Source of the DNA: a virus
Taxonomy: Duplodnaviria > Heunggongvirae > Uroviricota > Caudoviricetes
Reading direction: 5' to 3' (one strand)
Virus record (IMG/VR): IMGVR_UViG_2690316161_000025
Length of the DNA: 44,064 nucleotides
The notes under the pieces were generated by a model. It made no database searches and had not been told where the DNA came from. It saw only the letters and a list, made by a program, of their open reading frames with translations. Position numbers and translations under genes: made by a program. Below, piece by piece: positions 5,228-8,376 of this stretch (its first letter is position 1; each line of letters starts with the position of its first letter).

Positions 5228-5325
5228 TACCACCATTAATATTTAATTAATTCACATTCTTTTAATTATGGCGCGATGCGTCAGGGGATTGCTCGCGCCT
5301 GAAACAGATTACTGAGGAATAAAAC

Positions 5326-5856
5326 ATGGTTGATGCAAAAATTCTGAATGGTGTCAGCACATTATTACGGGCTTACGGACGCCTGACCTGCGGGGTTCTG
5401 GCTGAAAAAATGCAGATGCCATCCTCCGCAATGGTGTACTTCCTGCGTGATGCGGTTGATGCCGGAATGCTGACTGAACTTAATGGTTTTTACGACGTAC
5501 CGCGTCCCCGTACAGAGCAGCCTGTAAGACGAAACGCAACTGAGCAGTCTGCTGTTGATGATGCCGCGTGGTGTTCCTTCCGCCGCCCATTGCCCTGGCT
5601 GGAAGGCAATGCCATTCCGGCACTGGCAAAAGAATTTGCAACAGGCGTGCTGACCTGTGAATCCGTTCACATCGTTGCAGAAGTGGACAACAGAATGTGC
5701 GAACAGGGAATGCCCCGTTTTGTGATGGCTTATATCGATATCCGGCTGGGGCGTTTTATTTGCAGTTCCAGCGCCTGGAATATCACCGACCATGTACTGC
5801 GTTATCTCATTCTTGATTGTTCTCCGGCTCCCGCAGCGGTGCAGGAGGTGGCGTGA
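5326..5856 (+). CDS. Early-region hypothetical protein (176 aa)
   Basis: ORF with SD gagga upstream; operon context. Confidence 0.55.
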   Translation: MVDAKILNGVSTLLRAYGRLTCGVLAEKMQMPSSAMVYFLRDAVDAGMLTELNGFYDVPRPRTEQPVRRNATEQSAVDDAAWCSFRRPLPWLEGNAIPALAKEFATGVLTCESVHIVAEVDNRMCEQGMPRFVMAYIDIRLGRFICSSSAWNITDHVLRYLILDCSPAPAAVQEVA

Positions 5857-6386
5857 TGTTTTTTAAAACGTCAAATCCCACAGCACTGCTGGCATGGGAC
5901 CAGTTTATGGCGGACTGCCTGAAACTACGCGAAGAAGCCCGCCATCTTGATAAGGTTCTGGACTGTGGTTGCCGGTCAGTATTCAGTACAGGTATTGGTG
6001 GGCGTCATTTTCATGGTGTGAATTTTCCGGGGAATGAGCGCCCCTTCTCGCGGGAGCTGTGGACCGTACAACGGCCCGCATCAGGTAACAGTTGCAGGCC
6101 CAGAACTTCGTGGATACCTGCTCATCTCAGGGGGCAGGCAAGAGAGCTGGCGAAAATATGGCAGGAGAATATTCCGGTCACTTACGCCCGCACAGACGCT
6201 CTTTTACCCGCACTGGGACTGGATTTCAGCGCAACAATATTCGGGCCGCTCCAGTGGTTCCGTGTTGGTGATGTGATTTACGTCATGACGGGGATGACAC
6301 CCGCGCAAGGCCGCATGACTGAAATCCTTTCTGACGAATTTATCCGGGCGCAAAAACAGGCGGAGGTAACTAATGGAAAACAGTGA
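5856..6386 (+). CDS. Early-region hypothetical protein (about 176 aa from ATG 5856)
   Basis: ATG 5856 overlaps the upstream stop (TGATG) and has a strong SD gcaggaggtg; ORF track lists a longer 5817 start. Confidence 0.5.
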   Translation: MFFKTSNPTALLAWDQFMADCLKLREEARHLDKVLDCGCRSVFSTGIGGRHFHGVNFPGNERPFSRELWTVQRPASGNSCRPRTSWIPAHLRGQARELAKIWQENIPVTYARTDALLPALGLDFSATIFGPLQWFRVGDVIYVMTGMTPAQGRMTEILSDEFIRAQKQAEVTNGKQ

Positions 6387-6555
6387 AACATCGTATTCGT
6401 GGCTGGGGAAATTTACCACGGTGAAACAGGAATGCCCGACCTGCGGTAATGAATCCCCTGAATATCTGAAAGAGTGCCCTCATTGTGGCGGGCAGAAATG
6501 CAACCACTGTGATATGGGCGATGACACGGCGTGCATGAATTGTGAAGGTGAGTGA
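6373..6555 (+). CDS. Small zinc-ribbon protein (60 aa, CxxC x2 plus CxxC)
   Basis: ORF with CPTCGN...CPHCGG...CNHC...CMNC; SD ggagg upstream. Confidence 0.45.
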   Translation: MENSETSYSWLGKFTTVKQECPTCGNESPEYLKECPHCGGQKCNHCDMGDDTACMNCEGE

Positions 6556-6556
6556 T

Positions 6557-6865
6557 ATGAATAATGGTGTATTTTCAAAATCAGAAGAGCTTGCCGCCCT
6601 GCTGATTGCCGGTGGTTTGCCGAAAAAAGAAGTGCATGACTTTGTGAATTTTGTATATGAGACGTCTCATGAAAAAGCTATTGATGAGGTCATGGCGTAC
6701 CGGTTTGGCATTATTGCTGAGTCACTGAGTCCTCACTGGATTATTGAAAATCTCCGCGCTATTGCTGATGGCAACGATAAATCAGCAGCCGTTGCTGCAC
6801 TGGATGTGTTACGGCAAATGAGTCTGAAATTTTATCCTGAATTTATTCTGAGGGCCGCAAAATGA
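6557..6865 (+). CDS. Early-region hypothetical protein (102 aa)
   Basis: ATG 6557 just after upstream stop, SD gaaggtgag. Confidence 0.5.
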   Translation: MNNGVFSKSEELAALLIAGGLPKKEVHDFVNFVYETSHEKAIDEVMAYRFGIIAESLSPHWIIENLRAIADGNDKSAAVAALDVLRQMSLKFYPEFILRAAK

Positions 6866-7164
6866 ACAATGAAGATAAATTTACTCCCCTTAATATTGAT
6901 AACGTCATGGCTGAAAAAGGGATGCTGGAACGTGTTCGCGCTATCGTTGAATATGGTATTAAGCATAATCTCACCGCCAGAGAAGTCCGTGACATTATCA
7001 ACCGCGAAATGAATCGTCTGGAAACAGTAGTGGCACTGCAAAATGAAACAGCCCGCGAGGAGTACATCCGCCGCAGGCTGGGGTTATCAGACCAGGATAT
7101 TGTTACTGACGCTCATGTGTTTGAGGCTTTTGAGATCCGTCAGCATCTGGGTCTAACGAACTGA
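6862..7164 (+). CDS. Early-region hypothetical protein (100 aa)
   Basis: ATGA start-stop overlap with the upstream gene (translational coupling). Confidence 0.5.
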   Translation: MNNEDKFTPLNIDNVMAEKGMLERVRAIVEYGIKHNLTAREVRDIINREMNRLETVVALQNETAREEYIRRRLGLSDQDIVTDAHVFEAFEIRQHLGLTN

Positions 7165-7369
7165 TAATGTCTTCCATGATCTTTGACAGTTGCATGTTTT
7201 CGCGGCGGCTTGTTCTTATTGCAGGCGCATCTTTTAAAATCTCTGCTGAAGAGCTGAAAATGGCCTGGCCCTCTTCTGCGGTGATGATCGCCTTCTTCAC
7301 CAGAAGGCGCACCAGTGCTGATGCAATCGCATAACCTGCAACATCATAAGGTTGTACATTATTTTCCAT
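7103..7369 (-). CDS. Candidate antisense-oriented small protein (88 aa) in the gap between early genes and gemA
   Basis: Minus-strand ORF MENNVQPYDVAGYAIASALVRLLVKK... with good SD (gagagga, 5 nt spacer) before ATG at 7369; fills a 275-bp region with no plus-strand ORF. Confidence 0.3.
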   Translation of the reverse strand: MENNVQPYDVAGYAIASALVRLLVKKAIITAEEGQAIFSSSAEILKDAPAIRTSRRENMQLSKIMEDIISSLDPDADGSQKPQTHERQ

Positions 7370-7438
7370 AAAATCCTCTCTGATTGATGTGTAAATTCAG
7401 GCGGTGTTGCAGCACCGCCTCTTTCCGGAGGTACGATC

Positions 7439-7990
7439 ATGAATCGCACATCCCTGATTAAATTAATCCATGTCGCCCGTCGGGAGCTACAACTCGACGA
7501 CGACACTTACCGAGCTTTTCTGATGCAGAAAACGGGCAAAATCAGTTGCCGCGAGCTGACGGTTACGCAACTGGAACAGGTGCTCGATGCCATGAAAGAA
7601 CGCGGCTTTAAGAAGCTGAATAAACATCCACGTCGCCGCTTTAAGGGGCATGTCACGCCCCGCGAGAAGGTATACAAAGTCTGGCAGCAGATGGCAGAAG
7701 ACGGTTTTATTACCGATGGCGGTGATGTGGCGCTGGATAAATATGTTCAGCGCCTGACGGCGAAACGTAATGGCGGACAGGGTGTTTCCACGCTGGCGTG
7801 GTGTCATGGCGACACCCTGTTGATTGTTCTCGAAACTCTCAAGCAGTGGCATATCCGCTGTATTCGTGAAGCCTTTTCCCGTCACGGGCTTCCGTTGCCA
7901 GTCAGTCCGTCCGGGCGTGAACTGCGCGGCTATGATGCCATGACGGCGGCTTATGCCCATGCCAGAAAGACACGGAGGATGGCACAATGA
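7439..7990 (+). CDS. gemA: GemA (183 aa)
   Basis: 183-aa ORF immediately upstream of and overlapping mor (ATGA), SD ggagg; matches Mu GemA position and size. Confidence 0.8.
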   Translation: MNRTSLIKLIHVARRELQLDDDTYRAFLMQKTGKISCRELTVTQLEQVLDAMKERGFKKLNKHPRRRFKGHVTPREKVYKVWQQMAEDGFITDGGDVALDKYVQRLTAKRNGGQGVSTLAWCHGDTLLIVLETLKQWHIRCIREAFSRHGLPLPVSPSGRELRGYDAMTAAYAHARKTRRMAQ

Positions 7991-8376
7991 CGGAAGATTT
8001 ATTTGGTGATTTGCAGGATGACACCATCCTGGCACATCTTGACAATCCCGCAGAGGATACGTCACGCTTTCCGGCACTGCTGGCGGAGCTGAACGATTTA
8101 CTGCGCGGGGAATTGTCCCGGCTGGGTGTTGATCCTGCCCATTCACTGGAGATTGTTGTGGCTATCTGTAAGCATCTGGGCGGCGGTCAGGTCTACATTC
8201 CACGCGGTCAGGTTCTGGACTCGCTGATTCGGGATTTGCGTATCTGGAATGATTTTAACGGTCGCAACGTCAGCGAACTGACCACCCGTTATGGTGTCAC
8301 TTTCAATACGGTTTACAAGGCCATTCGCCGGATGCGACGGCTGAAATACCGCCAGTACCAGCCCTCACTTCTGTAA
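7987..8376 (+). CDS. mor: Mor, middle operon regulator (129 aa)
   Basis: 129-aa ORF; C-terminal region similar to the C protein encoded at 9169 (Mor/C family). Confidence 0.9.
   Translation: MTEDLFGDLQDDTILAHLDNPAEDTSRFPALLAELNDLLRGELSRLGVDPAHSLEIVVAICKHLGGGQVYIPRGQVLDSLIRDLRIWNDFNGRNVSELTTRYGVTFNTVYKAIRRMRRLKYRQYQPSLL

Follow-up and report, generated by a model that had tools for sequence, protein, structure and literature searches.

The early region of the textbook phage Mu is taught as one rightward operon, and the reference records of Mu conflict over the interval between gp14 and gemA, where RefSeq places a minus-strand gene (gp15) and GenBank a plus-strand one (Mu_54). Which of the two is the gene, and of what kind would it be? 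We addressed this question in a window of 44,064 nt (the whole stretch of DNA analyzed), a Mu/SfMu-type prophage whose start corresponds to Mu coordinate 1099. The 88-aa minus-strand open reading frame (ORF) that the initial annotation reported at positions 7103 to 7369 is present in the sequence (ATG at 7369-7367 and stop at 7105-7103 in the ORF list). It is preceded by the Shine-Dalgarno (SD) sequence GAGAGGA (7374 to 7380, reading 7380-7374 on the minus strand), which was also described correctly except for its spacer to the ATG, TTTT, of 4 nt rather than 5 nt. The convergent partner of this ORF is gp14 (100 aa; 6862 to 7164, plus strand; ORF list and Mu RefSeq annotation), the final 62 nt of which cover the gp15 3′ end, and its divergent right neighbor is gemA (7439 to 7990, plus strand), with an ATG 69 nt from that of gp15 and a Pfam GemA match at the equivalent position in relatives. 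These surroundings are 99.8 to 99.9% identical to SfMu and Yersinia phage vB_YpM_5 and 97% identical to Mu. The 275-bp plus-strand gap without ORFs that was initially described at this site does not exist as such, since the 274-nt gp14-gemA interval has a 55-aa ATG ORF at 7167 to 7334 (plus strand), the equivalent of Mu_54 in the AF083977.1 annotation, which we judge to be a shadow ORF for the reasons given below.

Antisense ORFs of 69 to 219 aa sit within neighboring genuine genes, so the length of the gp15 ORF alone is not beyond chance, and its above-chance status is a matter of the comparative sequence evidence. The longest of these antisense ORFs (7487 to 8146, minus strand) lies in gemA, encodes 219 aa, and appears as D-196 in record M64097. 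It is open in several close relatives, is cut to 106 to 132 aa in clade B, and is probably a shadow ORF.

The minus-strand ORF had been considered a possible unannotated convergent gene. The convergent coding gene withstood comparison, as detailed below, but the gene is not new to annotation, where it has figured since the Mu genome paper. RefSeq NC_000929 lists it as Mup15/gp15 (NP_050619.1) at 7896-8162, and the 1991 left-end record M64097 lists it as F-134. It is also called in SfMu (as gp16), vB_YpM_5, and vB_YpM_Tongde, and by PGAP in E. coli chromosomes, where the WP_021578945.1 copy is 100% identical to that of the window. The window protein matched phrog_8747 with an E value of 1.3e-60, residues 1 to 88 aligning on profile positions 1 to 88, and shares 95% amino acid identity with Mup15 (4 substitutions), the window copy being the SfMu/vB_YpM_5 allele. 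There is no substantive difference from Mu gp15 (Mup15; PHROG 8747), which has an identical slot between gp14 and gemA, strand, and 88-aa length. The annotated records of Mu, SfMu, vB_YpM_5, and Tongde, as well as E. coli prophages and contigs of clade C, all have the gene in this slot, oriented against the early operon. The revised GenBank record AF083977.1, on the other hand, has no gp15 and places a plus-strand CDS, Mu_54, at 7960-8127 (window 7167-7334). It further annotates a plus-strand "semi-early promoter" at 8151-8217, which spans the gp15 5′ end and a hairpin at 7400-7419 of the window. The paper accompanying this revision thanks the curators for the annotation update and does not discuss the gp14-gemA locus.

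To choose between the two strands we turned to diverged relatives. An exhaustive HMMER search retrieved full-length gp15 relatives with 51%, 49%, and 45% identity, and E. coli genomes held prophages with ∼73% DNA identity over the region. The minus-strand frame was intact (86 to 88 aa), with its ATG and SD-like run kept, in clades A (Mu/SfMu), B, and C, and thus in clades at 52% and 45% amino acid identity. An N-terminal motif, YDVAGY...L..LV.KG.IT.EEG, was invariant among the gp15 clades down to ∼45% identity. Over the 66 codons outside the gp14 overlap, the gp15 dN/dS between clades was 0.25 to 0.37 at a dS of >1, with synonymous sites changed ∼3 to 4 times more often than nonsynonymous ones (p = 2e-5 to 6e-4). 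Within clade A, the window and Mu differ by 4 nonsynonymous and 1 synonymous changes, which carry no short-range constraint signal. One further hit (P0005, 1438 aa) was discarded, since it summed matches over 12 tandem repeats in an unrelated, adhesin-like protein. Two of the checks suggested in the initial annotation, a homology search of relatives and an analysis of synonymous-site constraint, thus came out in favor of a gene, and the conserved frame, start, and SD in diverged relatives, together with purifying selection, speak against its alternative of a simply spurious ORF.

These data bear directly on the possibility that Mu_54 is the real gene and gp15 its antisense shadow. Mu_54 was the choice of the AF083977.1 curators, it is compatible with the picture of a unidirectional operon, and its frame also has a dN/dS of <1 (0.25 to 0.49), while the other four frames were near 1. 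However, gp15 and Mu_54 have their third codon positions in common, and a low dN/dS is therefore expected of a shadow frame. Since both frames scored <1, the wobble-position/dN/dS test was dropped as a discriminator, and the shared third positions led us to base the strand call on stops, start codons, and amino acid similarity scores. The gp15 frame was the only one free of stops across all lineages. In clade C, in contrast, the Mu_54 frame is interrupted by a stop and lacks the ATG, and in lineages E, F, D108, and H its equivalents contain 1 or 2 stops. Its translations were clearly less similar than those of the gp15 frame (BLOSUM scores of 101 to 132 versus 162 to 177), and its annotated RBS is just 3 nt. 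We thus hold a genuine Mu_54 to be highly improbable; as judged from this comparison, gp15 is the coding frame and Mu_54 its shadow. Scarcely credible either is a non-coding regulatory spacer carrying gemA-mor promoter or terminator elements in which the 88-aa ORF arose by chance, for although antisense ORFs of such length are common nearby, the annotated semi-early promoter lies across the gp15 5′ end and the hairpin, and the region is deletable, dS far exceeds dN, and length, N-terminal motif, start codon, and SD are all conserved.

The region is indeed lost in nature. A clean 223-bp deletion (7162 to 7384) was found in the plaque-forming phages vB_YpM_3 (L007) and vB_YpM_23 and in one E. 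coli prophage (L011, OZ040490); it sits at a TGAT microhomology, regenerates the gp14 stop, and leaves gp14 and gemA intact. A larger deletion in another locus, L033 (window ∼6880 to 7354), removed most of gp14 and gp15, and occasional gp15 copies are frameshifted or interrupted by insertion sequences (IS). The natural deletions indicate that gp15 is dispensable. In contig L017, an IS with a Transposase_mut (IS256-type) domain at 5236 to 6444 lies in the 3′ end of the clade C gp15 homologue and separates it from gp14, resulting in an aberrant 90-aa protein (P0007).

Beyond these clades, the gp15 superfamily comprises at least eight lineages and is limited to Enterobacteriaceae. In every lineage, the gene is flanked by a gp14 homologue and gemA, runs on the strand opposite to theirs, and shares 20 to 62 nt with the gp14 3′ end. 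An SD-like purine run occurs 5 to 9 nt before the ATG in all eight lineages, despite diverged flanking sequence. The N-termini of all lineages have the motif (Y/L/F)D(V/I)A(G/A)(Y/F)..A..L...L..KG.I..EE...I in common, the C-terminal halves differ, and the segment that overlaps gp14 is the least conserved portion of the protein family. A search of IMG/VR with gp14 homologues added lineages E, F, and G and returned 33 loci, with a leftward ORF that runs into the gp14 3′ end at each locus examined; among the Mu-like prophages examined, those without a gp14 homologue also lacked the leftward gene. The family profile search yielded 23 clusters from E. coli, Salmonella, and Citrobacter, none of them named, and the species-representative genomes searched contained no gp15 or gp14 relatives. 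In the searches made here, the family occurred only in Mu-like prophages of E. coli, Shigella, Salmonella, and Citrobacter.

One of the lineages is represented by phage D108, whose gp14-gemA "gap" of 376 nt bears no annotation and houses a leftward ORF of 119 aa with a good SD (NC_013594 7853-8212, minus strand; L031 1111-1470; PHROG 38610). An E. coli/Citrobacter relative shares 49% identity with it. The D108 ORF resembles gp15 in slot, strand, overlap with the gp14 3′ end, kind of embedded terminator, upstream hairpin, and N-terminal helical motif, and the gp15 and D108/L035 types both match phrog_32893 across one and the same profile region. It differs from gp15 in a direct identity of only ∼15 to 20%, in its C-terminal half, and in its N-terminal extension, which is longer and very acidic (net charge of −15). 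Taken together, profile and positional evidence identifies the D108 ORF as a remote gp15 relative and an overlooked counterpart.

The terminator shared by these loci is embedded in the gp14 coding sequence. On the minus strand, a stem-loop at 7080-7049, starting 22 nt beyond the gp15 stop, is followed by TTTCATTTT at 7048-7040; the whole element (window 7040 to 7080) corresponds to Mu ∼7835 to 7875, the place where AF083977.1 has a TransTermHP terminator (7839-7873). Folding of nine sequences revealed the same arrangement at equivalent gp14 codons in 8 of 8 lineages, with different stem sequences. Paired cells amounted to 88.9%, versus 36 to 47% in slid-partner controls, and three pairs were changed on both sides. 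The stems have 9 to 13 pairs and free energies of −10.8 to −21.3 kcal/mol on the minus strand, where the hairpin is the more stable RNA in 7 of the 9 sequences because of G-U pairs. T occupies 6 to 8 of the 9 bases after the stem, and this T-run is found only on the minus strand. Folding, covariation, and T-run thus mark 7040-7080 as a predicted intrinsic (Rho-independent) terminator that would end the leftward transcript and is part of the gp14 CDS. The gp14 residues encoded at this site vary (ARE..RRRL versus AHN..CREL) while the terminator persists in the eight lineages.

A leftward RNA, or the act of its transcription, might itself be the main function, acting on the gp14 3′ end and on read-through into gemA-mor, with the protein being secondary. 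The conserved convergent overlap with gp14, the placement of the terminator such that the transcript would end within gp14, and the fixed position directly upstream of the gemA-mor regulators are all compatible with such a role. However, an RNA-only role does not explain purifying selection on the nonoverlapping two-thirds of the protein, the gp14-overlapping segment is the one that is least conserved, phages without gp15 make plaques, and Rfam had no match at the locus. We consider it quite unlikely. Assignment to the class of cis-antisense regulatory RNAs was rejected as well, given the protein-coding evolution and the lack of an Rfam match, although the overlap with the gp14 3′ end may bring about an antisense effect of secondary importance.

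At the loci examined, every leftward gene is accompanied by a gp14 homologue. The comparison of loci indicates that gp14 and gp15 form a single convergent cassette, open to exchange, that lies in the interval from gp13 to gemA in enterobacterial Mu-like prophages, and the conserved gp15 terminator and 3′ overlap inside gp14 provide a physical reason for this co-travel. Clade C gp14 is nearer to D108 gp14 (54%) than to Mu gp14 (46%), with a Mu-type 3′ end and leftward partner; this mixed affinity points to a joint within gp14, close to the embedded terminator, that arose by recombination. To the left of the cassette, the window shares with SfMu and the Yersinia phages an extra 107-aa early gene (6542 to 6865, plus strand; PHROG 1988) that Mu lacks, the similarity to Mu picking up again at ∼6859. 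It is another mosaic cassette of the semi-essential region. The adjacent gp13 (60 aa; 6373 to 6555, plus strand) has CxxC pairs (CPTCG...CPHCGG..CNHC...CMNC), which suggest a small zinc-binding protein.

Co-travel may also be read as function, in that gp14 and gp15 would form a two-protein module, e.g., an inhibitor/partner or toxin-antitoxin (TA)-like pair. Their co-occurrence is strict, since a leftward gp15-type gene accompanies gp14 at all 33 IMG/VR gp14 loci and in all lineages examined, and the leftward gene is missing from prophages without gp14. Physical linkage nonetheless suffices to account for this pattern, because the gp15 terminator and 3′ end are inside gp14. Moreover, gp15 has been lost alone in natural deletions, the two phylogenies differ (the clade C gp14 leans toward D108, whereas its leftward gene is gp15-type), and neither protein hit a defense or TA model. 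A dedicated two-protein module is thus unlikely.

On the other side of gp15, the inverted repeat GGCGGTG/CACCGCC noted in the initial annotation is present; it occupies 7400-7419, in the stretch that separates the ORF start from the SD and ATG of gemA. The connection then drawn between this repeat and gp15 was not borne out, as Mu-like prophages without the leftward gene have also kept it. The hairpin occurs in all gp15-type lineages and at the gp15-less loci L032 and L034, with compensatory stem changes (GGCGGCT/AGCCGCC in L035/L068 and AGCGGTG/CACCGCT in L034), and it was therefore rejected as a gp15-specific element. DNA similarity with D108 commences exactly at 7400. The presence in gp15-less prophages and this boundary make the hairpin an element of the gemA upstream region and a mosaic joint. 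On the plus strand it is followed by a T-run (TCTTTCC), just ahead of and directly 5′ of the gemA SD, and hairpin plus T-run persist even in prophages whose upstream genes are unrelated. The sequence at 7400 to 7426 looks like a plus-strand attenuator or mRNA-end structure for gemA-mor.

What the gp15 protein does was approached through its predicted properties. Its pI is 5.0, and pIs of 4.3 to 6.0 across lineages make it an acidic protein throughout. The highest 19-residue Kyte-Doolittle mean was 0.9 to 1.5 in all lineages, below the cutoff of 1.6 for a transmembrane segment, and none was thus called. AlphaFold2 (AF2) models place helices at residues ∼7 to 25, 31 to 45, and 61 to 71 at moderate confidence, with pLDDT values of 66 to 69. 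By these predictions, gp15 is apparently a small, acidic, helical, cytoplasmic protein. A membrane superinfection-exclusion protein of the Sie type was rejected because there is no transmembrane segment and the conserved helix carries R, K, or D. A known antiphage defense or TA protein was likewise rejected, as Pfam, NCBIfam, and PADLOC had no match for gp15, gp14, or the D108 ORF. The profile search of the PDB with gp15 returned noise only (E of >0.5), and the sole Foldseek match in the PDB and BFVD was the Mu protein itself. The searchable literature contained no gp15 transcript, ribosome-footprint, or proteomic evidence and no published gp15 function.

Consensus scans upstream of gp15 found no leftward sigma-70 promoter. 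A position weight matrix (PWM) scan of the 400 nt upstream in eight lineages likewise revealed none above the background median of 6.6 and no shared workable position. A weak promoter candidate with its −35 in the loop of the 7400-7419 hairpin recurred, but its −10 ends 13 to 16 nt before the ATG, so the conserved SD would be lost from the mRNA, and this candidate was rejected.

The explanation that we regard as likely, taken as a whole, is that gp15 is a real, dispensable accessory gene read leftward, with its own SD and terminator and autonomous, moron-like transcription. Purifying selection, the conserved RBS, and the conserved predicted minus-strand terminator come from direct sequence comparison, and dispensability is indicated by the natural deletions. 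The gene may be transcribed alone, and its leftward promoter, weak or dependent on a factor, would be located at the gemA start or to the right of it; the embedded terminator would prevent antisense read-through of this transcript into the early operon. After induction, strong rightward early transcription would collide with leftward transcription, in which case the gp15 protein would mainly be made when the early operon is quiet, i.e., in the lysogen or upon entry. Expression varying inversely with early transcription would be moron behavior. Most likely, the protein would act by binding another protein.

The closest analogies for gp15, as far as likeness in arrangement goes, are phage morons and the opposite-strand genes of phage Fc02. 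Morons, such as HK97 gp15 (PMC9936078), are accessory genes within prophage operons that are transcribed independently, each flanked by a promoter and a terminator of its own. Like them, Mu gp15 is small, dispensable, patchy among close relatives, lies between conserved genes, is exchanged as a cassette, and has its own SD and predicted terminator; the factor-independent terminator directly downstream of a moron has its counterpart in the predicted element at 7040-7080, found in eight lineages. Unlike typical morons, Mu gp15 has a convergent and overlapping neighbor, with the terminator inside the CDS of this neighbor, and no promoter match by sigma-70 consensus or PWM scans. Its place in the moron class would hinge on such a promoter, which may be weak or activator dependent. 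In the Pseudomonas transposable phage Fc02, the early genes olg1 and gene 10 overlap on opposite strands; one of them is active in the lysogen, the lytic operon drives the other, and experiments demonstrated superinfection exclusion (PMC9936078). As with gp14/gp15, these are small opposite-strand genes that overlap in the early region of a Mu-type phage. The Fc02 pair has no sequence similarity to gp14/gp15, however, and it lies next to the repressor and ner instead of gemA; gp15 has no defense-model match.

A more far-reaching version of this explanation treats the gp14/gp15-type cassette as a strand-switch device common to enterobacterial Mu-like phages. The leftward gene would encode an acidic protein-binding factor, anti-defense or host-modulating, expressed only while the early operon is silent; convergent early transcription would shut the gene off, with its terminator written into the CDS of the opposing gene; and the hairpins at 7040-7080 and 7400-7419 would be recombination joints for swaps of cassette alleles. 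This reading is speculative, and we regard it as rather doubtful.

For Mu itself, the comparison decides the conflict between the reference records in favor of gp15. This amounts to an annotation correction, revealing no new kind of system and no function. What it adds for the phage and its enterobacterial relatives is the support for gp15 over Mu_54, the predicted terminator embedded in gp14, the counterpart in D108, and the definition of the family to which they belong.
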